Assembly (NCBI GenBank): GCA_977017645.1
Contig: OZ360223.1
Span: 1,922,001 to 1,986,000 of the forward strand
DNA: 64,000 nucleotides
Reading direction: 5' to 3'
DNA from: Torpedo marmorata
Taxonomy: Eukaryota
Shown: piece after piece, positions 3,906 to 57,321 of the stretch
Position numbering within the stretch: the stretch's first letter is position 1
Layout of the letters: every line of letters starts with the position of its first letter
Notes under the pieces: model-generated
Databases searched by the model: none
The model's input: only the letters and a program-made list of their open reading frames with translations
What the model was told of the DNA's origin: nothing
Position numbers and translations under genes: made by a program

Positions 3906-5514
3906 CCCTTTGGATTCTGGCCATTTTTAACCTTTCATAATGTATGCTCCAGACTGGGTCCATGGGTAAACTACAGTACGAACCAGCTGGTGGTTGGGTA
4001 TAAAACCAGTCCTGGAAAACGGGGACATGGAGTATATGCACTTGTTGGTGGTCCCTAAAAACTGGGACACGGAGTATATGCACTTGTTGGTGGTCACTGA
4101 AAACCGGGGCACGGAGTATATGCACTTGTTGGTAGGCCCTGAAAACTGGGACACGGAGTATATGCGCTTGTTGGTGGTCCCTGAAAACTGGGACACGGAG
4201 TATATGCGTTTGTTGGTGGTCCCTGAAAACTGGGACATGGAGTATATGCGTTTGTTGGTGGTCCCTGAAAACGGGGACACAGAGTATATGCGCTTGTTGG
4301 TAGTCCCTGAAAACGGGGACACGGAGTATATGCACTTGTTGGTGGTCCCTGAAAACTGGGACACAGAGTATATGCGTTTGTTGGTGGTCCCTGAAAACCG
4401 GGACACGGAGTATATGCACTTGTTGGTGGTCACTGAAAACCGGGGCACGGAGTATACGCGCTTGTTGGTGGTCACTGAAAACCGGGACACGGAGTATATG
4501 CACTTGTTGGTAGGCCCTGAAAACTGGGACACAGAGTATATGCGCTTGTTGGTGGTCCCTGAAAACTGGGACACGGAGTATATGCGTTTGTTGGTGGTCC
4601 CTGAAAACGGGGACACAGAGTATATGCGCTTGTTGGTAGTCCCTGAAAACGGGGACACGGAGTATATGCACTTGTTGGTGGTCCCTGAAAACTGGGACAC
4701 GGAGTATATGCGCTTGTTGGTGGTCCCTGAAAACTGGGACACGGAGTATATGCGCTTGTTGGTAGTCCCTGAAAACCAGGACACGGAGTATATGTGCTTG
4801 TTGGTAGTCCCTGAAAACGGGGACACGGAGTATATGCACTTGTTGGTAGTCACTGAAAACCAGGACACGGAGTATATGAGCTTGTTGGTAGTCCCTGAAA
4901 ACTGGGACACGGAGGATATGCACTTGTTGGTAGTCCCTGAAAACTGGGACACGGAGGATATGCACTTGTTGGTGGTCCCTGAAAACTGGGACACGGAGTA
5001 TATGAGCTTGTTGGTAGTCCCTGAAAACTGGGACACGGAGTATATGCACTTGTTGGTAGTCACTGAAAACCGGGACACTGAGTATATGCGCTTGTTGGTA
5101 GGCCCTGAAAACTGGGACACGGAGTATATGCGCTTGTTGGTGGTCCCTGAAAACTGGGACATGGAGTATATGCGTTTGTTGGTGGTCCCTGAAAACTGGG
5201 ACACGGAGTATATGCACTTGTTGGTAGTTCCTGAAAACTGGGACACGGAGTATATGTGCTTGTTGGTGGTCCCTGAAAACTGGGACACGGAGTATATGCG
5301 CTTGTTGGTGGTCCCTGAAAACGGGGACACAGAGTATATGTGCTTGTTGGTGGTCCCTGAAAACCGGGGACACCGAGTATATGCGCTTGTTGGTGGTCCC
5401 TGAAAACCGGGGACACCGAGTATATGCGCTTGTTGGTGGTCCCTGAAAACCGGGGACACCGAGTATATGCACTTGTTGGTAGTCCCTGAAAACGGGGTCA
5501 CAGAGTCCAAAGGG
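3906..5514. mobile_element. Non-autonomous piggyBac-like element (MITE) filled with a minisatellite
   Basis: TIRs CCCTTTGGATTCTG (3906) and CAGAGTCCAAAGGG (5501-5514) are flanked on both sides by TTAA. Confidence 0.85.
4012..5497. repeat. 42-bp minisatellite, about 35 copies
   Basis: Unit ctgaaaactgggacacggagtatatgcacttgttggtggtcc. The last units are 43-bp variants. Confidence 0.97.
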
Positions 5515-15078: not shown

Positions 15079-18000
15079 CAGTGGCGGATTAACCATTAGG
15101 CTAGCTGAAAAGAGAATGGGTTGGTCAAGTGGTCGCGTCTTCATTTAATTCTAAAGCAAAAGGAGTTGCTATATTAATTAATAAAAAGTTACCTTTCAAA
15201 ATACAATCTGTGGTTTTAGATGTGTCAGGAAGATATGTTTTAATAAATTGTCAGATATATTCAGAAATGTGGACACTTATGAATATATATGTGCCAAATA
15301 CGGAAGATGAACAATTTATTCAAGATTCTTTTATGCACTTATCAGAAGCAAATGATAAATATTTTAATCGGTGGGGATTTTAATTGTTATTTAGATCCAA
15401 TAATAGATAAAACATCAAAATCAACTATTAGAACTAAAACTGCGAAAAGAATTCTTACTTTGATGAAAGATTTGAATTTAATAGATATTTGGAGGAAGTT
15501 GAATCCAAGAGAAAAAGATTATTCCTTTTATTCTTTTAGACATGATTCTTATTCTAGAATAGACATGTTTTTATTGTCATCACAATTAGAAGATAGTGAT
15601 TCAAGCACAATATAAAGCAAGAATAATTTCTAATCACTCGCCTCTATTAATGTCATGTATAATTTCAGAAAAAGAAAAAATTATATATAGATGGAGATTA
15701 AATTCTTCTTTATTGAAAAGAACGGATTTCTGTAATTATATAAGAAGTGAAATTCAAGAATTTTTACAGATTAATTCTCATTCGATTGACAATAAATTTA
15801 TTATTTGGGAAGCTCTAAAGGCTTATTTAAGAGGTCAAATAATAAGTTATTCAGCAAAAGTTAAGAAGGAATATGTTCAGGAATTGGATAATTTGGAGAA
15901 GGAGATCGAGTTTCTGGAGAAGGATTTGCAAAAGAAGAGATCAGAAGAAAAGAGGAGAAATTTAATCGAAAAAAAATTGTATTATAATACATTACAAACA
16001 TAAAATGGAAAAATTAATTGAAAGAACTAAGCAAAGATATTATGAATTGGGAGAAAGAGCTCATAAAGTGTTGGCGTGGCAATTAAAGAAAGAACAAACC
16101 TCTCGAACTATAAATGCCATAAAAAAAGAATTCAAAGATAATAACATATAAACCTCGAGAAATAAATGATTCCTTTAGGGAATTTTATTTAAATTTATAT
16201 AAATCCCAAACTGATAAAGATGATTCTAAAATTAATGCATTTTTATCTAAAATTAAGTTACCTAGATTGAATATTCAAAATAAATAACTTTTAGATTCAT
16301 CATTTACGATAAGAGAAGTTAATGGCATTCTCAGTTCTTTAACAAGTGGAAAATCTCCGGGGGAGGTTTTCCCACCAGAATTTTATAAGGAATTTAAGGA
16401 TTTATTGATACCTCCATATGTTGTTAAAACAAATAACGGAACTCATTCTCTACCGGAAACATTTTCAAATGCAATAATAACAGTTATACCAAAAAAAGAT
16501 AGAGATTTGTTGAAAACAGAATCATATAGACCAATTTCATTGTTAAATGTGGATTATAAGATAATGGCAAAAATTTTAGCAAAAATAGTGGCTAAATATT
16601 TACCGGATTTAATTCATGTAGATCAAGCAGGTTTTATTAAGAATAGATATTCAAAAGATAATATAGCCAGGTTAATCAGTTTAATAAATGTGGCACAAAA
16701 GAAAGAGGAATTAGCATTAGTATTAACATTAGATGCTGAAAATGCTTTTGATAGATTAGAGTGGAATTATTTATTTAAAGCATTGGAAAAATTTGGTTTT
16801 GGAACTACATTTATTAATTGGATTAAAACAATATATAAAGAACCTTCTGCCAGAGTGGTGACAAATGGACAAATTTCTTCAAAATTTTTGTTGACTAGGT
16901 CGACTAGACAAGGATGTCCTTTGTCGCCAGCATTGTTTAGGTATTAAAGTTGGAAGAGAAGAGCATAAAATTAGTTTTTTTGCAGATGATGTATTGATTT
17001 ATATGACAAAACCTATTACTACTTTAATACAATTGAATGTTTTATTGAAAGAATACGGGGAGATATCTGGTTACAAGATTAATTCTGATAAAAGTGAAAT
17101 TATGGCATTGACACAAGGGGATTATAGTAAATGTAAAGAAATTACACAATTTAAATGGTCAAAGGAAGGAATTAAATATCTGGGAATAAAGACTGATACA
17201 AAATTAGCTAATTTATATAAATTAAATTATTTACCATTATTTATGAAAATTAAAAAAGATTTAGAAAGTTGGAAGGATTTACCTATAACTTTAATAGGAA
17301 GGGTAAATTGTATTAAAATGAATGCCTTTCCAAGAATTCAATATTTTTTTCAATCAATTCCTTATGAAATTCCTCAGAAATTCTTTAAAGATTTAAATTT
17401 AATTATTAGGAAGTTTTTGTGGAAAGGAAAGTTGGCTAGAGTAGGTATGGAGAAATTAACTTGGAATTATGAAATGGGTGGTTTACAACTTCCTAATTTT
17501 CAAAATTATTATAAAGCAGCTCAATTAAAGTTTATTAATGAAATGTTTGATTTAGGAAAATCTTCTGCTTGGATTAGAATAGAATTAAATAATATAGGAG
17601 AAGATTTGAAAGAAGAAGTTATTTATAAATGGAATTCTAAATTATTATTCACAAGAGGGAAAATTTCCTATTTTTAAACATTTGTTAGAAATATGGAATA
17701 GAGTGGATAGAGAGATAGGAGCGAAAGGGTATTTTCTCGAAAAATGCCTTTATATCAAAATAAACATTCCATTTACTGTTGATAATCAATTATTTAAAAT
17801 TCGGTTCCAAAAGGGAATTAAGAAAATAAATGATTGTTTTGAAGCTAGTAAATTTATTACTTTTCAAAGAATGAAAGAAAAGTTTAATGTATTAAATAAT
17901 ACACTTTTTGCTTATTATCAAATTAGAGCATTTTTAGTTGAAAGTTTAGGTTATAGTTTGACTTTACCAAGACAAAGTGAACTGGAATTATTAGTTACTA

Positions 18001-20513
18001 ATGGAGGTGTAAATAAATTTATTTCTCAAATGTATAGATTGTTACAGAGAAAAATGCCTAAATTAGAAATTCATAGATCAAGATTAAAATGGGAATCAGA
18101 TCTGAATGTAACAATAGATGAAGAACATTGGAAAGAATTATGTAAACTAAGTATGACGAACATTATTAATGTTAGATATAGACTAGTGCAATATAATTTT
18201 TTTCATCAATTATATTTAACACCTAAAAAATTAAAGAAATTTATTCCGACATTATCTGGTTTATGTTTTAGATGTAATAGAGAGGAAGGTTCTTTTGTAC
18301 ATTCTACATGGCTTTGTCCAAAGATATATGATTTTTGTTTGAAACTTAAAAAGTTTTTAGATAAAGTATTAAGAATGACACTCCCAATGGACCCTATGAT
18401 ATTTTTGTTTGGAGATATTAAAAGAATTAGTATTAAGATGAAATTAAATATGTATCAAATAGAATTTTTACGTATTGCTTTAGCTGTTTCTAAGAAATGC
18501 ATTGCTATTACATGGAAATCTGATGTAGATTTAGGGTTAGAAACATGGCATGCAGAACTCCGTTCATGTATACCACTTGAAATAATTACTTATAATTTAC
18601 GTAATAAATATCATTTCTTTTTGAAAATATGGAGCCCATATGTAAAAACTGTTGGTTTAAGGATTTGAAGATCTCTGGATATAAGATCTGACGGCGAACC
18701 TGTGTTCCACAATAAAATCAGTTTATAGTTGTTCTTTTTTAATTGACATTCTCCTTACTTTATCTTTTTCTTTCTTTCTTTTCTATTTTAGTAGATTAGT
18801 AGGGGTGGGAGGGTTAGGGAGGGGTGGGGGGGGTGAAAATGTATCACATGTATTTTGATAATTTTGCATTTAAAAAAAAAACCATTAGGCCGAGTAGACT
18901 GAAGCCTCGGGGCCCGGAAGGTAAGGGGGCCCGTCAAACAACAATAGAAATAAGAGATACAACAATAGAAATGTTACTTTAACGATGCCAAAGGGAACTA
19001 AGCCACAATATTAAAAGTATTTTAAAATTGCAACAACTTGTAGCTTTCAACGCTCCTGTCAATTGGCTTTCACCTATTCACTGAAATCAAAAAACAACGG
19101 GCCCGCTCAGGGCAGCGGCGAAGGCTCAATGCGGGATCAATGGCCGTCTTCGTTACCCATAATCCAGCGCCAGGGAAACGCACATGCCTGTCGTCGCCTG
19201 TCTTGGTACAACAATATGTACCCAATTGTTGTTATAGCGTTAATTCCAACAATTGTAATCATAATGCAGGTAAGTATAAATAACCCATACACTTTAGGAA
19301 ATTTTATTTTCTATTCAAATACAGTTGCACGGAGGTGGGAGTAGTGGAAAACTAATGTTAATATTGTTTGATCTGATTTGACCTTCATGTATCGTGCTTC
19401 TTTGAAATAAATATAAGATACAATCCACTCTTAATACACGGGACAAGGACTTGAACATGTCCCGGCTCCTCTCTGCGCATGCAAACGAAAGCGCCATGCG
19501 AATGTATACTCTGAAATGGGCAGTGGATTATCGATGTGGTGTTCCCTGTCGTCCTCCTCAGAAATTAAATTAAGGGCAATGTGTTACAGGCTGAAAAACA
19601 AAGCAATCTTTGACAGTCACAAAGCAACCACTGATCGAATTCAATGTCGAGACCAAAAAAATCTAAATTGGTAATATTCATACAAATTAGCGTGGACTTT
19701 AGTGAAGTTTATATCCAACGGACTTTTAATAAAACATGTACCGTAATTTTCATCTGATTATTTGCACTTTTTAATTTGAAGTTCAATAATGGGGTGGAGA
19801 GTGCCAATTTTTGCTAGATACTTTCATAATTGTTGAGTGAACATTTAATCTAACCATAGGTGATAACCTCCAAGGAGATATGCATTATTTTGTTGGAATA
19901 AAAACACCTATTGTTCAAGTTGTAATTGCCAATTCTGGAAAAAAACTATTTCCTGTCATTAGATGAAGGTAGCAAAATCGTCTGCTAAAATTAACGTTGA
20001 GCTGCATTATCAGATTGAACAGAGGCCGCACGTTATATGAGGCCAAACTAAATGTCTCGATTCTAATCAGTGTGTGAACAGAAGAACCTGTGTTTTTGAC
20101 CAGATGTGACTTGACAGTGTGCTGTCGCTGCTGACCAGCATGATCAGTTACTTTGCGACCCTGTGGTACAGGTTATAATATTGTGTAACTACAAAGTTTA
20201 AAAAAAAAAAAAAAAAAACAATGCCGCAAAGCAAACACATGATGTTTCTAAATTTTAATCTGGTATTGCAAAACGCTTTGTGGTTGAATAATGATGAAGT
20301 AATTTGAACTTCAAACATCATTTGCATTGATGGAAACATTAAATTTGAGACAGGAATCGAAAACATAATAAAATGTGTAGTTGCTTCGGTGACGCTAGTG
20401 CTGAGGGTGGGTGGGAGGGCATGGCCCGCGAGTGCCCCCCCCCCATGACGCCGACCCTGGGGGGCCTTACTAAAGCTCAGCCTAGGGCCCGGGTGGTAGT
20501 TAATCTGCCACTG
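15079..20513. mobile_element. Non-autonomous hAT-like DNA transposon interrupted by an L1
   Basis: TIRs CAGTGGCGGATTAAC and GTTAATCTGCCACTG. Degenerate 8-bp TSD tctccaaa/cctgcaaa. GC-rich subterminal gggccc motifs at both ends. Confidence 0.75.
15102..18879 (+). mobile_element. 5'-truncated L1-clade LINE (endonuclease, RT, C-terminal domain; frameshifted)
   Basis: EN motifs GVAILI, GGDFN and SRID; RT motifs YRPISLLN, RQGCPLSP and FADD; A-tail; 11-bp TSD aaccattaggc at 15091 and 18880. Same family as the copy at 6689-9692. Confidence 0.95.
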
Positions 20514-28817: not shown

Positions 28818-30706
28818 ATGTGGGAAGGGAGGTGGATGGAATGTGCCTGCCGCACACCCAGTGGAGACAGACGTACATGTGGGAAGGGAGGTGGATGGAA
28901 TGTGCCTGCTGCACACCCAGTGGAGACAGACGTACATGTGGGAAGGGAGGTGGATGGAATGTGCCTGCCGCACACCCAGTGGAGACAGACGTACACGTGG
29001 GAAGGGACGTGGATGGAATGTGCCTGCCGCACACCCAGTGGAGACAGACGTACACGTGGGAAGGGAGGTGGATGGAATGTGCCTGCCGCACACCCAGTGG
29101 AGACAGACGTACATGTGGGAAGGGAGGTGGATGGAATGTGCCTGCCACACACCCAGTGGAGACAGACGTACACGTGGGAAGGGAGGTGGATGGAATGTGC
29201 CTGCCGCACACCCAGTGGAGACAGACGTACACGTGGGAAGGGAGGTGGATGGAATGTGCCTGCCGCACACCCAGTGGAGACAGACGTACACGTGGGAAGG
29301 GAGGTGGATGGAATGTGCCTGCCGCACACCCAGTGGAGACAGACGTACATGTGGGAAGGGAGGTGGATGGAATGTGCCTGCCGCACACCCAGTGGAGACA
29401 GACGTACATGTGGGAAGGGAGGTGGATGGAATGTGCCTGCCGCACACCCAGTGGAGACAGACGTACATGTGGGAAGGGAGGTGGATGGAATGTGCCTGCC
29501 GCACACCCAGTGGAGACAGACGTACATGTGGGAAGGGAGGTGGATGGAATGTGCCTGCCGCACACCCAGTGGAGACAGACGTACATGTGGGAAGGGAGGT
29601 GGATGGAATGTGCCTGCCACACACCCAGTGGAGACAGACGTACATGTGGGAAGGGAGGTGGATGGAATGTGCCTGCCGCACACCCAGTGGAGACAGACGT
29701 ACATGTGGGAAGGGAGGTGGATGGAATGTGCCTGCCACACACCCAGTGGAGACAGACGTACATGTGGGAAGGGACGTGGATGGAATGTGCCTGCCGCACA
29801 CCCAGTGGAGACAGACGTACATGTGGGAAGGGAGGTGGATGGAATGTGCCTGCCGCACACCCAGTGGAGACAGACGTACATGTGGGAAGGGAGGTGGATG
29901 GAATGTGCCTGCCACACACCCAGTGGAGACAGACGTACATGTGGGAAGGGACGTGGATGGAATGTGCCTGCCGCACACCCAGTGGAGACAGACGTACATG
30001 TGGGAAGGGAGGTGGATGGAATGTGCCTGCCGCACACCCAGTGGAGACAGACGTACATGTGGGAAGGGAGGTGGATGGAATGTGCCTGCAGCACACCCAG
30101 TGGAGACAGACGTACATGTGGGAAGGGAGGTGGATGGAATGTGCCTGCCGCACATCCAGTGGAGACAGACGTACATGTGGGAAGGGAGGTGGATGGAATG
30201 TGCCTGCCGCACATCCAGTGGAGACAGACGTACATGTGGGAAGGGAGGTGGATGGAATGTGCCTGCCGCACACCCAGTGGAGACAGACGTACATGTGGGA
30301 AGGGAGGTGGATGGAATGTGCCTGCCACACATCCAGTGGAGACAGACGTACATGTGGGAAGGGAGGTGGATGGAATGTGCCTGCCGCACACCCAGTGGAG
30401 ACAGACGTACATGTGGGAAGGGAGGTGGATGGAATGTGCCTGCCACACACCCAGTGGAGACAGACGTACATGTGGGAAGGGAGGTGGATGGAATGTGCCT
30501 GCCACACATCCAGTGGAGACAGACGTACATGTGGGAAGGGAGGTGGATGGAATGTGCCTGCCGCACACCCAGTGGAGACAGACGTACATGTGGGAAGGGA
30601 GGTGGATGGAATGTGCCTGCCACACATCCAGTGGAGACAGACGTACATGTGGGAAGGGAGGTGGATGGAATGTGCCTGCCGCACACCCAGTGGAGACAGA
30701 CGTACA
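28818..30706. repeat. 59-bp minisatellite, about 32 copies
   Basis: Unit atgtgggaagggaggtggatggaatgtgcctgccgcacacccagtggagacagacgtac, nearly homogeneous. Confidence 0.98.
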
Positions 30707-33700
30707 AACCATTGTCATGACTGTGCCCGAATAGAGTTCTGTTAGTAAGGGGCTCATTAATTGAGGATGGGTGGGGTGGCAGGGTTTCTGATGTTCCTCC
30801 ATAAGGCTTGACAGACCAAAGAAGGAATGGGAAGGGCCAAGCATTTGAATGGTGGGAGAAGGGCATGTTTATTTTTGTTTGTCCCTGGGAAAGTTCTCCT
30901 GATCTTTGGAACAGAGGAGGTTGAGGGGAAATGGTTGAGAAGTATAACATCATGAGGAGGTCTGGACAGAGGAAAAGAGAAGGACCTATTTCTCTCAAAA
31001 GACGGGTCCAAAATCAGGGGACATAGATTTAAAGAAATAGATGAACTGATTAGAGGGGAGTTGAGGGAAAACATTTTTACCCAGAGGGTGACAAACTCTC
31101 ACCTGATTAGAGCAGAACCTACATGTGCACTTCTAGAACCATGACTGCAGCTCTAGGAGGTGGGATTGGCTTGTGTTTCTTTTTTGGGCTGTTGTAGCCC
31201 TCTTTTTTCCATGTGTTGTGTATTCTAGGCTAAGATATACACGAGCACACACAGACGTGGTGCTTCATTCATTCTTTATTACTAATCTAAAGATGGTTTC
31301 CAACGCCACACTATATATGTACGTATGACGTCATGCGCGGCATACCAAGCCTGCGTGTATCCACAACACTCTTTTCCCCCCCCCCCACAGAATATATGCG
31401 ATTAAACATGCCCATAGTAACAAGTATGTTGAACTACAGTGACTAAGGATTATGATGGAACTACAACTACAGAGTATATATAATTCGTAATGTAATAACA
31501 TGTCAATTGGCCCAGTCATGGTACATAGTCCCTCAGACGTTCCGGAGGACATCGTTGCCTTTGTGATCTTCTTGGCGGGGCTGCAGAGTCCATCGGGACA
31601 CCTGACGGCTTGTCTGGACTCTTTGCCTTGTCGGGGAAGACCTCCTCCTCCTCCTCCTCGGGGAAGACCTCCTCCTCCTCCTCCTCCTCGGGGAAGACCT
31701 CCTCCTCCTCCTCCTCGGGGAAGACGACCTCCTCCTCCTCGGATAGCTTGGACTGGGAGCTTGGTTTTCGATGAGCACTATTCCAACCTTGGGCTGGACT
31801 GCTTCCCCGGCTCTCTCGATCAGCTGATGTTGATCGTGTTTTATCAATTGTTGTTATAGCAGGGATGTCGTCGTTGACCCAAACTGGAAAATATTGGGAA
31901 TCGTCTGTTGGTAATATCATCATTGGATCATCTACTGCTCTCAATTGGTCGATGTGTTGCTTCCATATGTTATGGAATACGAACAGGGGCTTAGTTTCTT
32001 AATGAAGACGCCTCTTACCCAAGTTTCTTTATTGTCTCTGTAATCTCGTACCAACACTCTTTCTCCCACTTCTCATGATCTGGTCTGCTTAGTTGGAGAA
32101 GTGGATTGTTCGATACGAAGGCCGATATCTGGGTGTACCGCAGAGAGTCGTGTCCTTAAATTGTGTCCAAACATCAATTCTGCCGGTGTTCTTTTTGTTG
32201 TTGAGTGAGGTGTATTTCTGCATCCTGCAAAAAAATTTGTGATTTTGTGATTCCAAGAAATGTTTTGCGATTTTCTAGCTTTCATGGCTTTTTTAAATGT
32301 CTGTACAAAACATTCAGCTTCTCCATTAGTGCTTGGGTGGTAAGGTGCTGAGAGCAAGTGTTGTATACCATTGTTACGCAGAAACACCTTAAAAGCAACT
32401 GATACAAGCTGAGGTCCATTATCTGAGACCAGTTCCATTGGTAATCCATATGACGCAAACATATTTCGTTGTCTTTCAATTGTTTGAATTGTTGTTGTTG
32501 TACGCATGTGTGATACCACTGGCCATTTGGAGTGTGCGTCGACAACAATAAAGAAATTTTCCCCCATGAATGGACCTGCGAAGTCCACATGAATTCTGTG
32601 CCATGGTCGTGACGGCCATTTCCATGGGTTAGCTTTGGCTTGTGATGCCTTGTGTTGCATTTCTTGATAAGTGCCACATCTTCGCACGGTTTGTTCGATA
32701 TCGATATCCATTGATGGCCACCAAACATGCATTCGTGCTAAAGCTTTCATTCGGACCATTCCTGGATGATTGTCGTGTAGTTCTGCAAGCATGTTCATTT
32801 GCCATTTTTTTTGGAATAATCGTCCTGGCACCCCACAATAAACAACCTTCTTCGATAGTTATTTCATTACGTCGTGTATAGTAAGGCTTAAGGTCTGGAG
32901 AAACAGCGTCCCCTTCGGGCCATCCATTCAATGTGAAATAAAGGACTTTTGCCAGTGTCGGTTCGTTTCTTCTTTGCTGATTATTTTCGCTGTAATGGGT
33001 AGGTGGCAAAGTTGTTCTTGGTTAACAGCTGTTGCCTCTGCTGTCCAGTGGATTATCTCTTCCTTCTGTTCAGTTTCAGGTAGGGGTAAACGTGATAAAG
33101 CATCGGCATGTTCGTTTTGTTTTGCTGGTTTATGTTTCAAATCATAATCATAAGCAGCGAGCATCATGGCCCATCTCTGGATTCTTGTCGCCGCTAGGAC
33201 AAAAATGCCCTTTTTAGGACTTAAGATCAAACTCAGTGGCTTGTTGTCAGTCACTAAGGTAAACCTCCTACCATACAAGTACTGGTGAAATCTTTTGATT
33301 CCGAATATTATGGCCAGTCCCTCTTTTTCGAGTTGTGCATAATTGCGTTCACAAGCTGTCAATGAGAGGGATGCATAAGCCACTAGTTGTTCTTCTTTTT
33401 CCGTGATTTGTGACAATACTGTCCTAAACCCACTGGTGAGGCATCCACTGCTAGAGTCACCTCTTTGTTTGGGCCGTAGTGGACGAGCACATTATTGCTT
33501 GAGGTTAATAGTTTCTTTAAACGGTTGAACGCGTCACTTGTTTTTGTATTCCAGTACCACTTCTGGTCTTTTTTTAGCAACTGGTTCAGTGGGTTGCACA
33601 GTGTGGACATGTTTGGAATGTGTTTCCGATAATGGTTGACTAAACCTAAGAATGATTGTAGTTCTGTTCGCTGGGCAGGGTGCTCTGCGGACGGCTTCGG

Positions 33701-34587
33701 TACCTGCCGTATTCATTTGTACGCCTTCACTGTTAATTGTAAATCCCAAATACGTTACAGAGGGTACCATAAATACACATTTGTCTTGGCGTAGCCGGAC
33801 GTCCGCTTGTTGTAGTCGGGTTAAGACTCTTTCCAGGTTCGATAGGTGCTCTGCGTCGTCCCTCCCTGTAATAATAATATCATCCAGGTAGCACCCTACA
33901 TTTATACCGTGCAGTAATTTGTCCATAACTGCTTGAAATATTGCAGGAGCTGCTGATATCCCATATGGCATTCTCGTATATGTGAATAACCCCAAGTGGG
34001 TATTGATTGCCACATATTTTTTTGATGCTTCATCCAATTTAACTTGTTGATACGCTTGAGATAAGTCCAACTTCGTGAACTTTTTCCTGCCATTTAGGAA
34101 TTGGAATAACTCCTCCGCTCTTGGCATGGGATGTTCAGGTATTTGCAGAGCTTGATTAACGGTGACTTTATAATTCAAATTTCTCCATTAGGTTTTCGGA
34201 CTGGCACAATGGAAGCTGCCCAGTCACTATATTGAAGCTTTTCAATGATTCCTTCATTTTCTAATCTGTTGAGTTCCGCTTCATTCTTTCCTTTTATTGC
34301 GAAAGGTACTGTCCTTGGCTTATAGAACTTGGGTTCAGCTCCAGGTTTCAATTGTAACTTTGCCTGGACTCCTTTGATTTTCCCGAGGCCTTTTCCGAAT
34401 ATGGTTTGATACTTTTTAAGCAGGTGTGTCAGCTTTGATTTTGGTTCATTCTCAGTCTGCATTTCAGTACTGACGCGATTTCCATCCAATCCAATTGGAT
34501 GTGTGATAACAAGTTTCTTCCGAACAATGCATGTCCCTTTGTGTCAACGATGACGAGGGATAAATCTTTTGCCATCTTTCCCTTATA

Positions 34588-36866: not shown

Positions 36867-39800
36867 TGTGGTAAACCACTGTAAATACATGTATATATGC
36901 TTATGGTCATCTGGACACGCCCCTTACTGACTGTACCTGCGGCTCCTCCCACAGACCCCTGAATAAAGGCTATTGTGCCACAGCTCCCTCCCCAGTCCAG
37001 CACAGACGACCACCAGGAATGTACATTCATTCCAATGTGAATAAGAGCCTATCAGTTCCTGCTTAATTTCTAGTCTTTGGAGTTATTGATGGTGCATCAA
37101 TTTTATTCACATTGTTTTCAATAATGGATCAGTACCTGAAACCGGAAAAGTTGGAGCTAGATCCTCGATCACCTGAGGCATCCAACTGTTTCGAACACTG
37201 GCTGCGTTGTTTTGAGGCATTCTTGAGGGCCTCCGCTGCTGTTGTCCAATCGGAAGACGACAGACTACAACTACTACATTCCCGGGTCGGGCCCCGGGTG
37301 TACTTGATGATCAGGGACGCTGAATCCTACCAGGAGGCTATGGACACGCTAAAAGGCCAGTACCTGAAGAAGGTAAACCAAGTCTACACAAGACATCTCC
37401 TAGCTACCCGAAAACAGCGACCTGGGGAATCGAGTGATGAATACCTACTTGCCCTGCGAACCCTCGGTTGGGCCTGCAACTGCAAAGCCGTTACGGCCGC
37501 AACGTACACTGAGGACCTCATAAGGGATGCCTATGTTGCCGGTATCCGATCTATCTACATAAGGCAGAAACTTTTGGAACAAGGTGAGCTCGATTTGCGG
37601 AAGGCTGTACACCTAGCGGACACATTAGAAGTGGCCCTCCAAACCATGGACGCGTACTCGGCCAATAGCACAACCACACCGTGGTTGCAGCGGGCGCCGC
37701 CGTCTTGGGACGTGGGAGGGTCACAAGCCTGTGGAACACCGCCATGTTCCGTTATCAACTCGACCACGGCTGCTGTGACCCGCAGCCAGCCGAAGTGCTA
37801 CTTCTGCGGATCGGATAAGCACCCATGGAAACGCTGCACGGCGAAAGACGCGGTCTGCGCTAACTGCAGGAAGAAAGGACACTAGGCGAATGTCTGTAAA
37901 TCCCAACCGCCCGCTAGACCCAGCAGCGCCGCGTGTGAGCAGAGGGCGCCGCCATCTTGGATGATGTCATCTTCCCAACCCAGCAGTGCCACGTGCGAGC
38001 CATGGGGGCCACCATCTTGGACGACGCCATCTTCCCCACCCAGCAGCGCCGCGTGCGAACCATGGGGGCCGCCATCTTGGACGACGCCATCTTCCCGACC
38101 CAGCAGCGCCGCGTGCGAATCCGACAGCGACTCCGTACTGGCCTCCATCACTCTTGATCAAGGGAGTCCCCATCAACTGGCCAGATCGATGATGGACATT
38201 GAGGTGGATGGCCACAGGACGAGCTGCCTTTTCGACAGTGGGAGCACGGAGAGATTTATTCACCCCGACATGGTACAGCGTTACCGACTCGCGGTAACGC
38301 CAGTACGCCACAATGTCTCCATGGCTTCCAAGTCCCACACAGCAGAGATCCGCGGGTACTGTGTTGTGACCCTGACTGTACTGGGCATAGAATATAAACA
38401 CTTTAAGTTATTAGTCATGACACAGCTCTGCGCGGATGTGCTGCTGGGGCTAGACTTCCAATGTCAACTTAAAAGCGTGACATTGGAGTACGATGAGCCC
38501 CACTCCCCTCTTACCGTCTATAATCCGCAGTTTGTGAACCGCCCATTGCAAGTCACCCACAGAAGCTCCCTGGGTCCCCCTCCCATTGCGTCCAACCAGC
38601 GACTCGCCGACCGCGCACGACCTGCGGCCATTCTACCCTCCGGATCACCTCCCCACCATTGTTCGCTAGTCGTACACCCGACTGCAAACCCGTGGCCACC
38701 AAAAGTAGGCGATACAGTGCCGGGGACAGGGCCTTTATCAGGTCGGAGGTGCAGCGGCTTTTGAAGGAGGGGATCATCGAAGCCAGCACCAGCCCCTGGA
38801 GAGCCCAAGTGGTGGTGGTAAAGAATGGGGAGAAGAACAGGATGGTCATCGATTATAGTCAGACCATCAACCGATATACGCAGCTGGACACGTACCCACT
38901 CCCCCGCATAGCCGACATGGTGAACCAGATCGCCCAATACCGGGTATTCTCCACCATCGACTTAAAGTCGGCATACCACCAACTCTTCATCCGACCGGAG
39001 GACCGCCAATACACTGCCTTCAAGGCAGATGGACGCCTCTATCATTTCCTGAGGGTTCCCTTTGGTGTCACCAACAGGGTCTCGGTCTTCCAGTGGGAGA
39101 TGGACCGCATGGTCGACCAGGACGGGCTGCAGGCCACATTCCCATATCTGGATAATATCATCATTTGCGGCCATGACCTACAGGATCATGAAGCCAACCT
39201 CCAAAAATTCCTTCACACCGCCAAGCTCCTCAACCTTACTTATAATAGGGATAAATGCATCTTTGGCACAACACGCCTGGCCATCCTTGGCAGTGTCATA
39301 CAAGATGGAGTGATTGGTCCAGATCCAGACTGCATGCACCCCCTGTTGGAACTCCCACTTCCCCACAGCCTCAAATCCCTGAAAAGGTGCCTGGGCTTCT
39401 TTTCCTATTATGCCCAGTGGGTCCCCAATTATGCGGACAAGGCCCGCCCCTTCGTCAAATCCACCTCTTTTCCCCTAATGTCAGAGGCCCGTGCAGCCTT
39501 CAGCCGCATCAAGGCGGACATCGCCAAGGCCGTGATGCACGCTGTGAACGAATCCACCCCGTTCCAGGTGGAGAGCGATGCGTCCGACTTCGCCCTGGCC
39601 ACCACCCTCAACCAAGCGGGCAGACCCGTAGCTTTCTTTTCCCGCACCCTCCAGGGCCCAGAAATCCAACACTCCTCTGTCGAGAAGGAGGCCCAAGCCA
39701 TTGTCGAGGCGGTGCGGCACTGGAGGCACTACCTCGCCGGCAAACGATTTACCTTGCTAACTGACCAACGTTCAGTTGCTTTTATGTTTAACAACCAACA

Positions 39801-41346
39801 GCGAGGCAAAATAAAAAATGACAAGATACTGAGGTGGAGAATCGAACTTTCCACCTACAATTACGATATCTTGTACCGGCCCGGAAAATTCAATGAGTCC
39901 CCAGATGCCCTATCCCGCGGAACATGTGCTAGCGCACAAATAGACCGCCTACAAGCCCTCCACAGTGACCTCTGCCACCCCGGGGTCACCAGGTTCTTCC
40001 ATTTCATAAAAGCCCGCAACCTACCTTACTCCATCGAGGAGGTCAGGACCATGACCAGGAACTGCCAGATCTGTGCAGAGTGCAAACCGCACTTCTACCG
40101 ACCAGACAGAGCGCACCTGATAAAAGTCACCCGCCCCTTTGAACGCCTGAGCGTTGACTTCAAGGGACCCCTCCCCTCCTCTGACCGCAACGTGTACTTC
40201 TTCAACATTATTGACGAGTACTCACGTTTCCAGTTCGCCATCCCCTGCCCGGACACGACCACAGCCACAGTCATCAAGGTCCTACGCAACCTTTTCACCC
40301 TCTTCGGATACCCCTGCTATATCCATAGCGACCAGGGGGTCCTCTTTTATGAGTGATGAGCTGCGTCAGTACCTGCTGGCCAGAGGTATCGCGACGAGTA
40401 GGACCACCAGTTATAATCCCTGAGGGAACGGGCAGTTGGAGAGGGAGAACGCCACCGTTTGGAAGGCCACCCTCCTAGCCCTAAGGTCGAGAGGTCTTCC
40501 AGTCTCCCACTGGCAAGAGGTACTCCCCGAGGCACTCCATTCAATCAGATCACTCTTGTGCACAGCCACCAATGCCACTCCACATGAGAGAATGTTTTCC
40601 TTCCCTAAGAAGTCCGCTTCAAGGATCACGCTGCCATCCTGGCTGATGTCCCCAGGACCGGTCCTACTCCAGAGGCACGCGAGGAGCCAAAAGCAGGACT
40701 CACTGGTCGAAAGGGTCCATCTCCTCCACGCCAACCCCCAATACGCCTACGTGACGTATCCTGATGGGCGGGAGGACATGGTCTCCGTTCGGGACCTGGC
40801 ACCTTCAGGAGTCCCTGATACCACTGATGACCGCCCTGCCCCCTCCCCACCCACCGCCACCCACGATGCACCCTTACCACGGCAAGTGACACCAGCTCCG
40901 GGGGATGGCTTGCCAGATACTTCGCCGCCACGCATCCACCAAGACAGAGCCGACAACAACACACAGGTGGTACAATCAGGACTGGATGCAACAGCTGCGC
41001 CGTAGCCGGTACTACGACGGTCGCAGCGGCAGACCGGACCACCTGAAAGACTGAACCTGTGATAACTTTAATTCACTTCACCCCACAAGACTTTTTTTAA
41101 AAGGAGGGGTGAATGTTGTAAACCACTGTAAATACATGTATATATGTTTATGGTCGTCTGGACACGCCCCTTACTGGCTGTACCTGTGGCTCCTCCCACA
41201 GACCCCTGAATAAAGGCTATTGTGCCACAGCTCCCTCCCCAGTCCAGCACAGACGACCACCAGGAATGTGCATCCATTCCAATGTAAATAAAAGCCTATC
41301 AGTTCCCTCATAACTTCTAGTATTTGGAGTTATTGATGGTGCATCA
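36867..41346 (+). mobile_element. Full-length Ty3/Gypsy element C (same lineage as element A)
   Basis: 233-bp LTRs at 36867-37099 and 41114-41346 (about 14 mismatches by eye), TSD gactg/gacag, PPT 41101-41113. Gag starts at 37124, followed by protease LFDSGS, RT, RNase H and integrase with a few stops and frameshifts. Confidence 0.97.
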
Positions 41347-50220: not shown

Positions 50221-51291
50221 AAGTGATCCACAAGCAACTTTTTCCCAACGTCCTCACAGATATTAGATACTTCAAGGTTCAAACATTGTGGGATCTCTGT
50301 CACCAACAGAACTAAGTGTCTAGAAAATGGATGCATGTTAGAAGCAATGGACTGGATCTTGCTGGTTAATGTCCATAATTCCAAACATAAATGCTGATAT
50401 TTACCTATATAATTAAGTCCAGGACTTCCATGTGGAGTCCACCAGCAGGGCCTAATCTTGCTGAGATTCCCCTGCATTTATTATAGAGGATCGCCTCTTG
50501 GACACTGTGACTGGTCAGATCTGCTATTGGATCTGTAACCTGAGGATTGTAGGGTTTCGTCTTGGGAGGTGAAGGGTTAGTTATACTTTGAAAATTATTT
50601 AGTGTTTTCAATTATATATGTGTTTAGGCATTTTTGTTTACTATTTAAATGTTTCATAAATTTCCAGGTTAAGCAGGATTAGCAGGGGGGAATGCAGGCA
50701 TGTGTTTCCTCTTGGGGCTACTGGGTCAGCAAGGTATGACCCAGTACAACTGATTGTGGTAAACTGATAAAACTGGTATATTCACTGTTCTATTGGGGGT
50801 GGAAGAGCTAAAGGCTCGTTTCTTACCTTCATTGCGCCGTTCTGATGGTCCCAGCGGGTGTCGGAGTGTAGTAGGCCATGTTAGGCACAGGAGTACCGAC
50901 GGGCGCATGCGCAGTGGGTAGCTGGCTGGAGCATGCGCGATGAAAGGGTGGCTGGAGCATGTGCGGTGGAGCATGCACGATGGAATATGCGCGCAAATCG
51001 GAAAGGAAGTATTATAAAAACATGGCGACGTAGAGGAGGGTGAGTGAGATCGTCATAGTTTTCATTGACCGTTGTAAAGGAACTTTATAAAGAATCGCTA
51101 TTAAGAATCGTTATTAAAGAAAGTTATCGTGGATTGTTCATATTTCGTTAAAGAAGATATTTAAGTTATTGAAGATTGCTACAAGTCATCGTGTGTTAAT
51201 AAACATTTTGAACATATTGGACTTTGTTAATAAATTAATTGAAACGCGTCAAGAACAAGTGTCTCACCTAGCCTCCAAGTGACTATTTATT

Positions 51292-51971
51292 GGTACATAA
51301 TTCCCTGAAAGTTGAGTCACACGTAGATAGGGTGGTGAAGAAGGCATTTGGTGTGTTGGCCTTCATAAATCAGAGTATTGAATATAGGAGTTGGGATGTC
51401 ATGTTGAAGTTGTATAAGGTATTGGTGAGGCCAAATTTGGAATATTGTGTGCAGTTTTGGTCGCCGAATTATAGGAAGGATATAAGCAGAATAGAGAGAG
51501 TGCAGAGGAGATTTACAAGAATGTTGCCTGGGTTTCTGGGTTTGAGTTACAGGGAAAGGTTGAGCAGGCTGGGACTTTATTCCCTGGAACGTAGAAGGTT
51601 GAGGGGTTTTTAAAATTATGAAGGGGACAGATAGAGTCAATGTGGACAGGCTTTTTCCATTGAGAGTGGGGAAGAATCAAACAAGAGGGCATGGATTGAG
51701 ATTGAAGGGGGAAAAGTTTGGAGGAAACATGAGGGGGAATTTCTTCACTCAGAGGGTGGTGGGAGGGTGGAACGAGCTTCCGGCCGAAGTGGTAGATGCA
51801 GGTTCAATTTTAATGTTTAAGGAAAAGTTGGATAGGTATATGGACGAGAGAGGTGTGGAGGGTTATGGGCCGGGTGCGGGTCAGTGGGACTAGGTGGGAG
51901 AAGGTGTTCGGCATGGACTAGAAGGGCCGAACTGGCCTGTTTCTGTGCTGTAATTGTTATATGGTTATATA
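51292..51971 (+). mobile_element. CR1 3' fragment inserted in the BEL 5' LTR
   Basis: LYKVLVRPNLEYCVQFWSP...TRGH and a (gttatatg)-type tail. Absent from the 3' LTR. Confidence 0.92.
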
Positions 51972-52443
51972 TGAAGTCACTACATTTTAGTCAATGAAAA
52001 CTTTATTGTTTGGAACGGAAAATTGAAGAATAGAAGATAGAATAACCTCTCTGTTCTTTGGATTGATATTTAAAATAAGATGGTGGCCATCTTGGAAATG
52101 CCTCGAGTTAGGGGCAGTTTGTAATCCACATCCATCTGCCATGAGTAACAGCCAGAGAGGGATTCAGAGATTCTAATCTTATAGTAAAGTATCCTATAAA
52201 CACGTTGGTGAAACCATTTCTTGAAAATCAGCGATATTATTGACGGATGCTGTGGTGGAAACTCGTTTGTGAATAGCAGCACATTACAGCCATCTGAAGT
52301 GGTAGGCATAAGTCTGTGGACTCCTTCTGTGTATCTTTGGCAAATTTGAACACAGTTTGGATTTGCCGCCGCTAGTCCATTGGGGACTGTTGATTTGGCT
52401 AGTGTTGTGTATGCTCGAAGGACGGTGGAACAAAACGAGTAAA

Positions 52444-55400
52444 ATGGCCGCAGCAGCCGCTGATGTTGCTGTTGAGGAACAACGTATTGAAGACATGAAG
52501 GTTGTGGATCTCAAAGAAGAATTGAGGCAAAAGAAACTAGATACAAGTGGAAATAAAAATGTTCTCATTGCAAGACTGAAGCTGGCAAAAGTAGAAGAGG
52601 CGGTGGCTTCGATTGATGGGAATGAAGACATTTTGCAAACTCATTGCAGAAGACAACGACTGAACATGAAGACAGCAACGTGGAAATGGTTGATGATGTG
52701 TCACCAAATGGTGATGAAGATGAAGAAAACGAAGAGGATGAAGATGTAAAGGATGTACAATTCGAATTGGTGAAAGAGTTAAGTAAGAAAAATACAAGCA
52801 TGTGACAGTGTCTCAAATGTTGAAAGCAGGAGAAGCAATCAAAGTTCTTCTGGTTCAAGCTCCAGAGTTTCTCGTACTTCAAGTTCTGCATCGTCACGTA
52901 CAAAGATTGAAGCTGAATTGGCCGCTCTTCTTGTACGACAAAAATCGCTTAAGGATAAACATGTTTTAGAAGAACAGGAGGAGCAGCTAAGAGGACAGGA
53001 GGAACAGCTAAGGCAGAAACAGGAGCAGCTAAGGCAGAGCCAGAAGCAGCTAAGAGAACAGGAGGAGCAGCTAAGGCAGAGCCAGCAGCTAAGGAACAGC
53101 CAGGAGCAGCTAAGACAGAGAAAGGAGCAGCAGGAGCTGGAAGCAAACATTGCTATTGCTAGGGCCAGAATGAAGGTACTAGAAGGCTCAATGGTATCTG
53201 GTGCTCGGAGTAAATTATCTGAAGTGTGTGATGATAAGAAGTCATATTTTAAAAAAGAGCCACAGGAAAATAAACCAACCAAAAAGGGAGTAGATATTTT
53301 AGTACCACGGGTACAAGACTTGCAAATACAAGGACAAAGCCTCCCAGAGCATGGTGTTATCAAGTCACATGTACCAGTGGTAACATCCGAAAACAAAGAT
53401 GCGGCTTGGGTTCAGTCAAACGATGCAGCTTCCTTGACATTCGAGTCAAGCATCAGAAATATGGGAGAAACTACACCAGTGAAGGTTTCCAGATACATTA
53501 CATGTAACAAGAGGCGGTGAACAGAGCAATGTATTATCATCCATGGAAAGACAAAATGAAATCGCTGCATCATTGATTCAGTTACAGTCTCTCTCTTCTT
53601 TTCCCAAGAAAGAGAGACAAACTTTTTATGGTGATCCACTTCAGTACCAAGCGTTCATGAGATCTTTTAGACGCAATATTGAAAATAAATGCCAAGACCC
53701 TGATGAATGTTTTTATTATTTGGAAATGTTTACAAAAGGATAGCCAAGGGAACTTGTAAAGAGTTGTCAACATATGTCCTCGGATAGAGGATTAGAAAGA
53801 GCTAAGGCTTTACTAGAACAACATTTTGGCAACAAGCATCGAATTGCTTTAGCTTATATGGATAAAGCTCTTAAATGGACATCAATAAAACCGAATGATG
53901 TAAAAGCTCTACAAGCATACACGCTCTTTTTAAGAGGATGTTGTAATGCCATGGAAGGTATCGATAATATTCGTGAGCTTGACGTGCCTGGAAATATGCG
54001 AATCATCTTAGATAAATTACCTTACCGGATGTGGGATAGATGGAGAAATTTGGCTTGTGATTTCCAGGAAAAATACAATCAAAGAGCTACCTTAAAGGAT
54101 TTGGTAGATTTCCTTGAACGACAGGTGTACATTGAAACAGATCCAATATATGGAAATACCAGAGACACTTCAATGGGGAACAAAGATGTAAGGAGGTCTA
54201 ACTCACAGTCTAGTCCGAAATTTAAAAGGAGTAATTTTGCTACTACTGTGTCAGTTATAAATAAAGAAAAAGATAAAGTAAATAAGGAAAAGGAAAGTTT
54301 GCCTGATGAGAAGAGTTGTTTGTTCTGTAAAGGTGGACATGCTTTGGAAATGTGTTTAAGGTTAGAAAAGAAGGAACATAATGAGAAGATCGCTTTCTTA
54401 AAGGAAAAAGGAGTATGTTTTAGCTATCTGTGTCAAGGGCACATCAGTAAAAACTGCGAGAAGCGAATTAACTGTAACAAATGCAATTTGAAGCATCCTA
54501 GAATGTTGCATATCCATCAAAGAAACAAGGAATTGGAAAAGGAGCAAACAGAAACAAAGGAAACATCAGAAAACAATGTTACAACCTCGGTTAAGACAAG
54601 TGGTCTTACCGGGGCCGGTGTGGATAACTGCAAACTTTCAATAGTGCCTGTACAAGTCAAGACCAAGAAAGGGGCTGCAACAGTACATACATGTGCATTT
54701 TTCAATCCAGGCAGCACTGCATCTATTTGCACGGTGGGACTAATGAACAAACTTAATCTTCGGGGAAGAAGGTCGAGGATTATGTTGAAAACCATGGGAC
54801 AAGAAAAGGTAATTGAAACCAGCATTGATTCAGGCTTAGAGGTTTCTGGATTGCATGACAAAGAATTTTATGATCTTCCAAGTTTATACACTCAGAAGAC
54901 TATGCCTGTGCACGAAGGAAACATTCCACATAATAATGATATCCATCATTTGTCTTATCTGTGGAAGGTTTATAAACCTGAAGTTAATTGTGAGGTAGAG
55001 ATGCTGATTGGTTCAGATGTACCAAAGGTTTTGGAACCACTAGAAGTAATACGGAGTAGGGTAAATGGACATTATGGTATTAAAACCAAGCTTGGTTGGA
55101 CGATTAATGGACCATTAGAAAGAAATAATGATATTGCTCAGGAACAGTTAGCGATAAATGTAAACAGGATTTTGGTTGTGAAATTTGATGAGTTAAGGGA
55201 AGAGCAAAAGATTGTAAATAAGAAAGTCACTTTTGAAGAAAAGAAAACAAATCAATGTGAAAATAAATCAAAGGTATTTAAAACAACATTGAAGGAATTA
55301 TTTTCATCAGAAATGGATGAAAATGAAGTATTAGAAGATGTTACAAATAATACTAGTGATTATTCCTGTGTAATTGAATCTGAAGCAGGACTAAAACAAA

Positions 55401-56233
55401 TGACTGAGAACAAATTTGAAAGTAGCTTTTGTAGCTCAGAGGTTACAGCAGACAAAGTCAATGAAGAAATGTTGCAACATGATGCAAAACAGGCAAAAGA
55501 AGAAAATTGCACTGATGGAATAAGGAAGCATGTGACTGACAATTTAATGCAACTGTATTCAGAGAACAAAATATTGAAAAGGGAATTGGAAATATTGGAT
55601 AATCATGAAAAAAGTAAACAGAAAGATTTAATTGTAAATAAAATTCACAAAGCCAGAAAGCGGAAGAAAATAATAACTGCTGAAGAAATAAATACAGTTA
55701 TTGAGGAAAGAGATTCAGCATTATCAAGATGTAAAAGGTTGGAGGAAGAGATTCATCTTTTGAAAGAGAACAAGTTATTGGTTAATTACACAAAACAGCT
55801 GACTGTAGAAAACAATCAAGAATGTAAATTGAAGGTTCAGCTACTAACAATGCAGAAAGAAAGTGATATTTCATTGCAGCAATGTAACAAGCAAGATGAA
55901 GAAATTCAAACATTTCAAGTTTACCACAGCAGGGTTGACAATAGAAATATCAATGTATCACATGATCTTTTCACTTCAGATCAAGTTGTTAATTTCTCAG
56001 AAGAAAATGAGACTGAATTGAAAGTTGCAAAATTGGATTTGGAATTGCAGGAAAAGGCAATAGAAACCAGAGTGGTTGAAAAGACTGCAGTTTTAGTTAA
56101 AGTGAAACGACATGCTGAAGAAGTACCTCATGTTAAATTCAAAAGGAAAACTGTATCTATTTTGTCTGAGGATGATTTGAGGTTTACTGGTGGACGTTTT
56201 AACTCAAAGATTCTGGAGATAGAGGAACTTTGA
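52444..56233 (+). pseudogene. Chimeric SAP-gag-protease-MIPOL1-like reading frame of the BEL element (frameshifts and stops in the 5' third; 53774-56233 open)
   Basis: SAP motif at 52483-52590, BEL gag from about 52800 and MIPOL1-like segment at 55625-55930. Confidence 0.8.
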
Positions 56234-57321
56234 TAAGTACAAACTGACTGCATTTTGTTATTTTTGTATACTACACAGGTTACAGACTTTATTGATCCAG
56301 AGTGATGGTAAACTCTGGTCTTATGAAGAAAGAAGATTTGTATATTGTTTGAATGTTATATGTTTATTTTTATTTGTAATTGATTGTGCAATTATTATTT
56401 AAGACATTGCGTCTCATTATAATAATTAGGGACCGGTGTAAGAGCCAAAGGCTCATTTTTTACTTTCATTGCACAGTTCTGATGGTCCCAGTGGGTGTCG
56501 GAGGAGTACCGGAGTTTAGTAGGTCATGCTAGGCCTATTGACTACTCTGCGCATGCATGGGAGTGCCGACGGGCACATGCACAGTGGGTAGGTGGCTGGA
56601 GCATGCGCGATGAAAGGGTGGCTGGAGCATGTGCGGTGGAGCATGCGCGGTGGAGTATGCGCGCGTATTGGAAGGGAAGTATTATAAAAACATGGCGACG
56701 TAGAGGAGGGTGAGTGAGATCGTCATAGTTTTCATTGACTGTTATAAAGGAAATTTATAAAGAATCGCTATTAAGAATCGTTATTAAAGAAAGTTATCGT
56801 GGATTGTTCATATTTCGTTAAAGAAGATATTTAAGTTATTGAAGTTACTACAAGTCATCATGTGTTAATAAACATTTTGAACATATTGGACTTTGTTAGT
56901 AAATTAATTGAAACGCGTCAAGAACAAGTGTCTCACCTCGCCTCCAAGTGACTATTTGTTGGATTGAAGTCACTACAGGGGGTATCATGGAGGCAACACA
57001 CTCACTGATTGTACAATTTTTGATCAGGTTGTCTTCTAATTGGTAGATATAACTAAGGAATAATTGATATCAAGTCATTTTAAAATCAAAATGGAAGAAA
57101 TATTGTAGTGAAGATGATGAGATAGAGGTTGTATTGCTTATGATTGCACTGATGCACATGGTCGATAGGTTCTGGTAAATAATCAGTACATATTAATATT
57201 GGTCTGGATATTTATTGCTAGAATGATTACAAACAGCTGCATTCAATTGTAACAAAATGCAATATATTTTTTAAATGTTTGTCACTGTCAAAAGTTTTAC
57301 TTTGTTTTCTCTTTGATCCAG

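Follow-up and report, generated by a model that had tools for sequence, protein, structure and literature searches.

In acutely transforming retroviruses, host coding sequence is fused to gag, the replication genes are replaced, and spread depends on a helper. LTR-mediated retroposition of host genes, including the maize element Bs1 and a mosquito case involving BEL18_AG, is described in PMC5131818. A further kind of retrocopy derives from circular RNA (circRNA). For mouse circRFWD2, the passages of PMC4897178 drawn on here report 33 high-confidence and 9 low-confidence derived pseudogenes, take a non-colinear exon join at splice sites as the criterion for circRNA derivation, tie the LTR element MMERVK10C-int to these pseudogenes (supplement legend) and call the mechanism of circRNA write-back mysterious. 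Mouse Mipol1 gives an exonic circRNA according to PMC9888537, in passages that do not state the exons.

The window investigated here is the whole stretch of 64,000 nucleotides from the electric ray Torpedo marmorata. Judged by eye, it resembles a dense transposon field, with several decayed LTR-type or LINE-type frames (974-2899, 10063-12538, 32073-34187, 37067-40356, 7739-9127, and 16288-18668). Tandem arrays at 4015-5506 and 28818-30706, built from units of 42 bases (x 35.5) and 59 bases (x 32) with 98% matches, produce long open frames on both strands. The element under study, with its parts listed in Table 1, reads in the order gag, protease, BRCA1, MIPOL1 arc, 20-base linker, ELOA, and BEL 3′ end.

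Table 1. Parts of the chimeric element and their positions in the window.
Feature	Position	Strand	Remark
Target-site duplication GGGGG, left	50795..50799	.	
5′ LTR, TG...CA	50800..51984	+	Split by later LINE-like insertion at ~51294-51971
BEL gag, N-terminal SAP domain	52444..54625	+	Frame shifts/stops upstream of 53744 in the window copy
BEL aspartic protease region	54626..55206	+	Active-site motif FNPGS in the window copy only
Captured spliced BRCA1 piece	55203..55631	+	Two host exons; up to four in longer relatives
Captured MIPOL1 exons E (part), F, G	55624..55929	+	85-92% to host exons
Back-splice junction, MIPOL1 exon G donor to upstream exon B acceptor	55929..55930	+	
Captured MIPOL1 exons B (part), C (part), D start	55930..56102	+	
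Captured spliced Elongin A (ELOA) remnant	56099..56211	+	
BEL resumes: last integrase codons, native stop 56231-56233, 3′ UTR, purine-rich tract	56211..56437	+	
3′ LTR, TG...CA	56438..56977	+	
Target-site duplication GGGGG, right	56978..56982	.	

The carrier is a BEL/Pao LTR retrotransposon, based on its LTR ends, target-site duplication (TSD), and gag-protease similarity. The window copy combines paired TG...CA LTRs (31 mismatches in 507 aligned bases) with the 5-base TSD GGGGG on both sides, and exact 5-base TSDs of differing sequence were also found at the copies L095, L103, and L112. Its gag-protease shares 60% identity with full BEL/Pao polyproteins of fishes (e.g., P0019), and PF05380, tested together with PF03564 and PF18701 as the Pao domain set, is present in 65 of 66 long homologs. 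Pfam assigned no family to the 829-aa open reading frame (ORF) or to its last 344 aa, and gave a weak DUF1758 match in another family copy. A SAP domain (PF02037, E 1.8e-11) at 52486-52581, within the ORF 52312-52749, marks the start of the BEL gag; this region also aligns with the pol-bearing BEL family, while Pfam did not find the domain in P0019, the nearest database polyprotein. Further inside gag, a 21-base repeat (52958-53131) encodes a Q/E/R-rich coiled-coil stretch. The insertion in the 5′ LTR is the 3′ end of a LINE-like element that entered after the retrotransposon had landed.

The ORF in question runs stop-to-stop from 53744 to 56233 (829 aa, ATG at 53774) and leads from gag through the protease into non-pol sequence, terminating on the BEL element's own stop 205 bases upstream of the 3′ LTR. 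Of gag, which is broken in this copy, it holds the tail only, with frame breaks near 52749, 53520, and 53741. An earlier note, made from the letters of the window, had recognized this open frame, the two LTRs with their TSD, the BEL origin, and the capture of a host segment without introns where RT, RNase H, and integrase would lie; the first two were confirmed, and the BEL origin and the capture are supported. For comparison, 40 cassette copies were taken at 10 kb, comprising 20 host-close copies from earlier matches and 20 of the first 24 pattern matches on contig C1. Neither the window copy nor any of the 40 carries an RT, RNase H, or integrase core between protease and cassette, the window element thus being a non-autonomous BEL/Pao derivative. 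Among these 40, the polyprotein match stops near residue 896-899 in most and near 950 in three, the last 50 integrase residues are retained in six, and the recovered LTR pairs are 84-94% identical.

A protein search with the last 344 aa of the ORF returned 18 database matches, all of them MIPOL1 by name (17) or by Pfam pair (one unnamed), with a best E of 4.9e-41; electric ray MIPOL1 was the top match in a later protein search. Sawfish (Pristis) MIPOL1 aa 364-469 are identical to the window segment 55625-55930 at 76 of 106 positions (72%). The earlier note had named MIPOL1 for exactly this segment, which holds, yet its picture of a single host segment was too narrow: the match runs on past 55930 with residues of a more N-terminal stretch (aa 210-292 following aa 364-469), and the neighboring BRCA1 and Elongin A pieces had been missed. 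The same permuted order appears at dozens of other sites of the genome.

Searching the 6.2 Gb host genome placed the MIPOL1 gene on the minus strand of contig C40, where 320 kb were tiled from the large 5′ exon to the 3′ exon. Nine exons were mapped (A, B, C, D, E0, E, F, G, and H), each being present once in these tiles. Exons B to G, seven in number, are all AG/GT-bounded, and their spliced frame is stop-free; they sum to 780 bases or 260 codons, without a stop even on reading round twice. Against this map, the window piece reads E(part)-F-G followed by B(part)-C(part)-D(start). It crosses the host joins E/F and F/G without intron, as the exon-junction check proposed in the earlier note anticipated for a captured transcript, whereas the B/C join has been taken out in the window sub-lineage by an 81-base in-frame deletion. 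The least deleted copy retains a continuous 587-base arc from inside exon E to inside exon D; exon D beyond base 18, a 34-base exon, and exon E up to base 48 lie outside the captured part. Four chimera copies reside within introns of the parental MIPOL1 gene itself (G000:C40, tile positions ~147k, 155k, 234k, and 302k).

The junction 55929|55930 unites the last base of exon G with the first base of exon B and thus falls exactly on the splice donor of G and the splice acceptor of B. We aligned 53 copies to the MIPOL1 exons (49 genome loci plus the four in MIPOL1's own introns), and every one crosses this G|B join, while exons A or H were matched in none. Genome-wide, a 20-base pattern over the join gave 4,876 exact matches and its reversed control none. 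The corresponding pattern for the linear join A|B was absent from the genome, and that for G|H occurred once, by chance, without MIPOL1 sequence around it. Of the features by which Dong 2016 recognizes circRNA retrocopies, which include detection of the parent circle in RNA, those of the sequence are found here: a non-colinear exon join at exact splice sites, nothing from exons outside the circle, and no poly(A) where the piece stops, inside exon D. With its exons out of order around an exact back-splice join, the MIPOL1 piece did not come from a normal linear mRNA; of the host mRNA capture postulated in the earlier note, the capture stands and the linear template does not. Joined backwards exactly at splice sites, the piece was, with high probability, copied from a candidate circular RNA.

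This reading has to be weighed against two others. A backward jump of the reverse transcriptase on ordinary MIPOL1 mRNA, or inside the element, could have hit the splice sites by chance. The family does make homology-guided jumps and duplications, and the G|B join offers 3 bases of homology (G and A both end in AG, B and H both start with C). However, enumeration of all backward joins on the spliced host RNA showed 27 of 804,354 to land on a donor plus an acceptor, or 9 of 17,563 when at least 3 bases of homology were demanded, corresponding to a chance of 3e-5 to 6e-4 per random jump. Moreover, none of the six outer capture ends (BRCA1 long-form 5′ and 3′, both of MIPOL1, both of ELOA) lies on a splice site, all being within exons. 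We therefore regard a chance jump as highly improbable.

Alternatively, the template could have been a linear MIPOL1 RNA with repeated exons, arising from trans-splicing or from a past tandem duplication of B-G. Such an RNA would yield the identical splice-site join, and the captured sequence, 587 of the 780 circle bases, stays below one full turn, so that no copy exceeds a single round of the candidate circle. Against it, each exon is found once in the present host locus, no aligned copy reaches exon A or H, and the A|B and G|H joins are missing from the genome apart from the one chance match. The introns flanking B and G, 50 kb and 62 kb long, show near their ends one weak inverted match (188 bases, 69%). 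Back-splicing is a commoner source of donor-to-upstream-acceptor joins than exon repetition. Taken together, a repeated-exon linear template appears improbable, though less so than a chance jump, and the circular template is preferred. Two apparent signs of longer circle coverage were discarded: three back-splice joins in a row at L184/L185 (G000:C42:9563800-9564950) turned out to be a 405-base tandem duplication, and protein-level hints were alignment run-on.

The piece preceding MIPOL1 was traced to BRCA1. In a representative search of 1.84 billion proteins it obtained two matches, both named BRCA1; an atlas search gave no usable match, and the best 40 matches of a DNA search in the own genome were all element copies. 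A shortened BRCA1 query located the host gene on contig C61. The piece comprises two to four spliced host exons in order, matching them at 89-98% in host-close and at 72-86% in window-type copies. Behind the MIPOL1 piece, the Elongin A domain PF06881 scored above cut-off in all three less-deleted stretches tested. Host ELOA on contig C41 matches exon by exon and in order, mostly at 91-98%, and longer family members retain about 600-700 bases of it over four or five host exons. One ELOA exon of 115 bases is kept in some copies and was lost from others through a 111-base deletion at a short repeat. An intron-containing Elongin-A-domain gene on contig C25 (L153-L157, G000:C25:175318134-175337563) was considered as donor and rejected at about 68-78% identity versus 91-98% for C41; it is probably a paralogue.

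Together, the BRCA1, MIPOL1, and ELOA pieces replace RT, RNase H, and integrase with about 1.0-1.6 kb of host sequence; as in the retrocopies of Tan 2016, parts of host genes stripped of introns lie within a discontinuous LTR element. By inspection, a few shared bases are visible at the BRCA1|MIPOL1 join, at secondary deletions, and in the recombinant L158. The MIPOL1|ELOA join has the 20-base linker instead, which found no match with up to 3 mismatches in three host tiles or in 12 pol-bearing stretches.

In terms of abundance, the 4,876 copies of the join represent a floor. Within 620 kb of tiles chosen for host genes, five copies span the join and two match the strict pattern; scaling by recall leads to about 12,000 copies and scaling by density to about 50,000, each figure derived from tiny counts. 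That the chimera was mobilised as a unit, as the earlier note had proposed, is supported by the same junction in 4,876 copies and by TSDs that differ. A search for a fused gag-host protein found none among the best 120 of 372 database matches (lengths 306-975 aa). No description of the family came up in the literature searched, and a repeat-library entry may exist. In four other public runs, from four organisms and four studies, the family covers 29-30 of 30 bins, and listed contigs of the runs X3 and X4 bridge the back-splice join. The occurrence of family and join in the runs of other organisms shows that they are not an assembly artefact, and the family is likely older than some of the species splits.

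A tree was built from 75 copies and the host MIPOL1 arc; most of its inner forks were unresolved and the bootstrap had not settled. It places the host arc among 30 host-close copies (92-97% identical). Beyond two intermediates lie 43 window-type copies (82-89%) on well-supported branches. Of 270 codon columns in gag, just 1 separates window-type from pol-bearing copies by a single base and none by several bases; for host-close gag, 84 columns with single-base differences were counted. With window-type gag this close to pol-bearing gag and host-close gag distant, the sequences suggest that the cassette shifted onto the front half of a helper lineage.

A first look yielded 3,917 candidates for this pol-bearing family, of which 12 sequences were examined. 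Their DNA is 85-91% identical to the window over two stretches, gag/protease as far as about 55206 and the part from 56211 onward. Each of the 12 is decayed, the longest stop-free runs being 398-605 aa, and mobilisation in trans is consequently inferred from sequence. One copy, L158 (2132-8579, both LTRs), contains gag, protease, BRCA1, and MIPOL1 to just past the G|B join, followed by RNase H and integrase without RT, the switch from cassette to RNase H lying at about 8 shared bases. Such a structure would be expected to arise when cassette and helper RNAs are packaged together. The whole chimera was likely spread by pol-bearing helper elements.

To evaluate selection, nonsynonymous (N) and synonymous (S) changes were counted column by column, both between sub-lineages and as private changes. 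Between sub-lineages, the MIPOL1 piece shows 27 N/12 S (ratio about 1.07, neutral share 0.68) and the BRCA1 piece 29 N/5 S, whereas the protease as control, compared between host-close and pol-bearing lineages, shows 15 N/29 S (ratio 0.22, p 8.5e-7). Private changes were neutral in all region-by-group tests but one. MIPOL1 and BRCA1 residues have thus drifted neutrally. For the ELOA piece, the two exons counted gave 9 N/13 S (uncorrected p 0.04 and 0.009), which hints at constraint.

The reading frame behaves differently. All four joins (BEL|BRCA1, BRCA1|MIPOL1, G|B, and MIPOL1|ELOA) are read through in frame, the large shared deletions come in multiples of three (8 of 8 distinct ones), and length variants are in frame in 27 of 33 shared versus 17 of 93 rare cases. 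Stop codons are absent from the yardstick codon columns, which is weak alone, with about 2-3 expected outside MIPOL1. Exceptions exist: some small indels that break the frame are each found in 3-5 copies, mainly within the final 35 codons but in two cases inside the MIPOL1 piece, and in the host-close lineage the last join does not lead into the BEL stop in frame. Host-close copies had been chosen by protein search, with a bias to open frames over part of MIPOL1. Spreading lineages retained one open frame, the retention not being absolute. A comparison of N and S changes across copies had been suggested in the earlier note; the frame is kept, and the MIPOL1 and BRCA1 residues drift. We interpret this combination as selection for translation that reaches the RNA's end.

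A different cause of frame retention would be a function of the fusion protein for element or host, e.g., as coiled-coil scaffold or Elongin BC-binding decoy. The in-frame joins and deletions, the very high copy number, and the synonymous lean of the ELOA piece fit this proposal, which is also compatible with a circular template. It is opposed by the neutral drift of the MIPOL1 and BRCA1 residues, by the neutrality of the window copy, and by the commonest lineage, from which most of ELOA, its Pfam domain with it, and parts of the BRCA1 and MIPOL1 pieces have been lost through deletion. We consider a retained peptide function unlikely and selection on translation the better account.

The window copy itself belongs to a high-copy BEL/Pao LTR element without pol and is dead, in view of its broken gag start, its neutral private changes (33, of which 26 N/7 S; neutral share 0.81, p 0.45), and the predominance of the protease motif LDPGS among its relatives. 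With about 2 stops expected, its frame would be open by chance at roughly 13%. The motif FNPGS, from which the earlier note had derived a possibly inactive protease alongside a preserved fusion frame, was seen once, in this copy; it does not indicate a family-wide dead protease, since LDPGS is read in 25 of the 34 window-type copies scored and in all 9 of the pol-bearing ones scored. A domesticated gag-host fusion gene, i.e., a single intact locus under purifying selection, was rejected in the face of thousands of copies, the broken gag start, and the neutral private changes.

Altogether, we hold it very probable that a BEL element lacking pol carries pieces of BRCA1, MIPOL1, and ELOA in one frame, the MIPOL1 piece likely stemming from a circle and the whole likely being spread by helpers. 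This explanation builds on what is observed directly: the anatomy, the exact donor-to-upstream-acceptor join, the copy number, the helper-like family, and the cassette/pol recombinant. In the proposed course of events, host RNAs including a 780-nt MIPOL1 circle of exons B to G would have been co-packaged in germ-line particles, and the reverse transcriptase would have switched template onto them at short homologies. It may have entered the circle in exon D and left it in exon E, so that the back-splice point was read through. The chimera would then have replicated in trans, later acquired LTR and gag from a helper lineage, and become shorter through deletions. Selection may have favored uninterrupted translation up to the distal end of the RNA rather than preserved a host-peptide function, with escape from nonsense-mediated decay or translation-coupled packaging as candidate causes, and a phase-symmetric, stop-free circle could pass such an open-frame filter. 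Avoidance of nonsense-mediated decay and translation-coupled packaging are known mechanisms.

With modest confidence, we lean toward a broader view, in which a germ-line circRNA was template-switched into a BEL element and became a three-gene in-frame passenger of roughly ten thousand or more copies in several ray species, selected only for its unbroken frame. In that case, LTR elements might quite generally preserve ancient circRNAs as fossils, after a filter for circles that are in phase and free of stops, and the copies could supply small RNAs against BRCA1, MIPOL1, and ELOA on a mass scale. Independent of this view, the family makes steps of the probable circRNA write-back legible: the template is entered and left within exons, the back-splice join lies in between, and both a helper-like family and a recombinant are present. 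The family provides genomic evidence for a specific back-splice event in the germ line of a cartilaginous fish, and its thousands of natural replicates separate selection on an open frame from selection on a protein. In practice, read mapping, circRNA calling, and annotation of the BRCA1, MIPOL1, and ELOA genes will be confounded by the copies throughout this group.

Gene capture by LTR elements and the circRFWD2 pseudogenes of mouse were known before; what is new is the scale, the in-frame arrangement of pieces from three genes, and a helper that can be seen. Compared with autonomous fish BEL/Pao elements such as P0019, the ray element shares LTR ends, 5-base TSD, gag, and protease, and its helper-like copies the order of pol; it differs in the exchange of pol for host sequence and in the SAP domain at its gag start. 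Like acutely transforming retroviruses, it bears host coding sequence on gag instead of replication genes and was likely spread by a helper, but its carrier is an env-less germ-line retrotransposon, and its residues drift while the host protein of the transforming viruses is selected cargo. With the retrocopies of Tan 2016 (PMC5131818) it has in common partial intronless host pieces from several parents in a discontinuous LTR element, switch points shared among copies after secondary spread, and in-frame products; short homology at switch points, described there, may have a counterpart in the few shared bases seen at some joins. The term "circ" was not found in the main text of that source, and Bs1, given there with 1-5 copies, contrasts with thousands for the ray chimera, in which frame retention and neutral residues become measurable. 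The circRFWD2 pseudogenes, as far as presented in the passages of PMC4897178 considered, are likewise marked by a back-splice exon join, circle exons only, no poly(A), and an LTR association. Their 33 + 9 copies stand against at least 4,876, about a hundredfold difference, and the ray chimera is set apart by its BEL/Pao carrier in a cartilaginous fish, its in-frame position within gag-protease, two other host RNAs, and visible switch points, helper-like family, and recombinant. The chimera thereby joins two known kinds of retrocopy at a far larger scale and with a readable mechanism.
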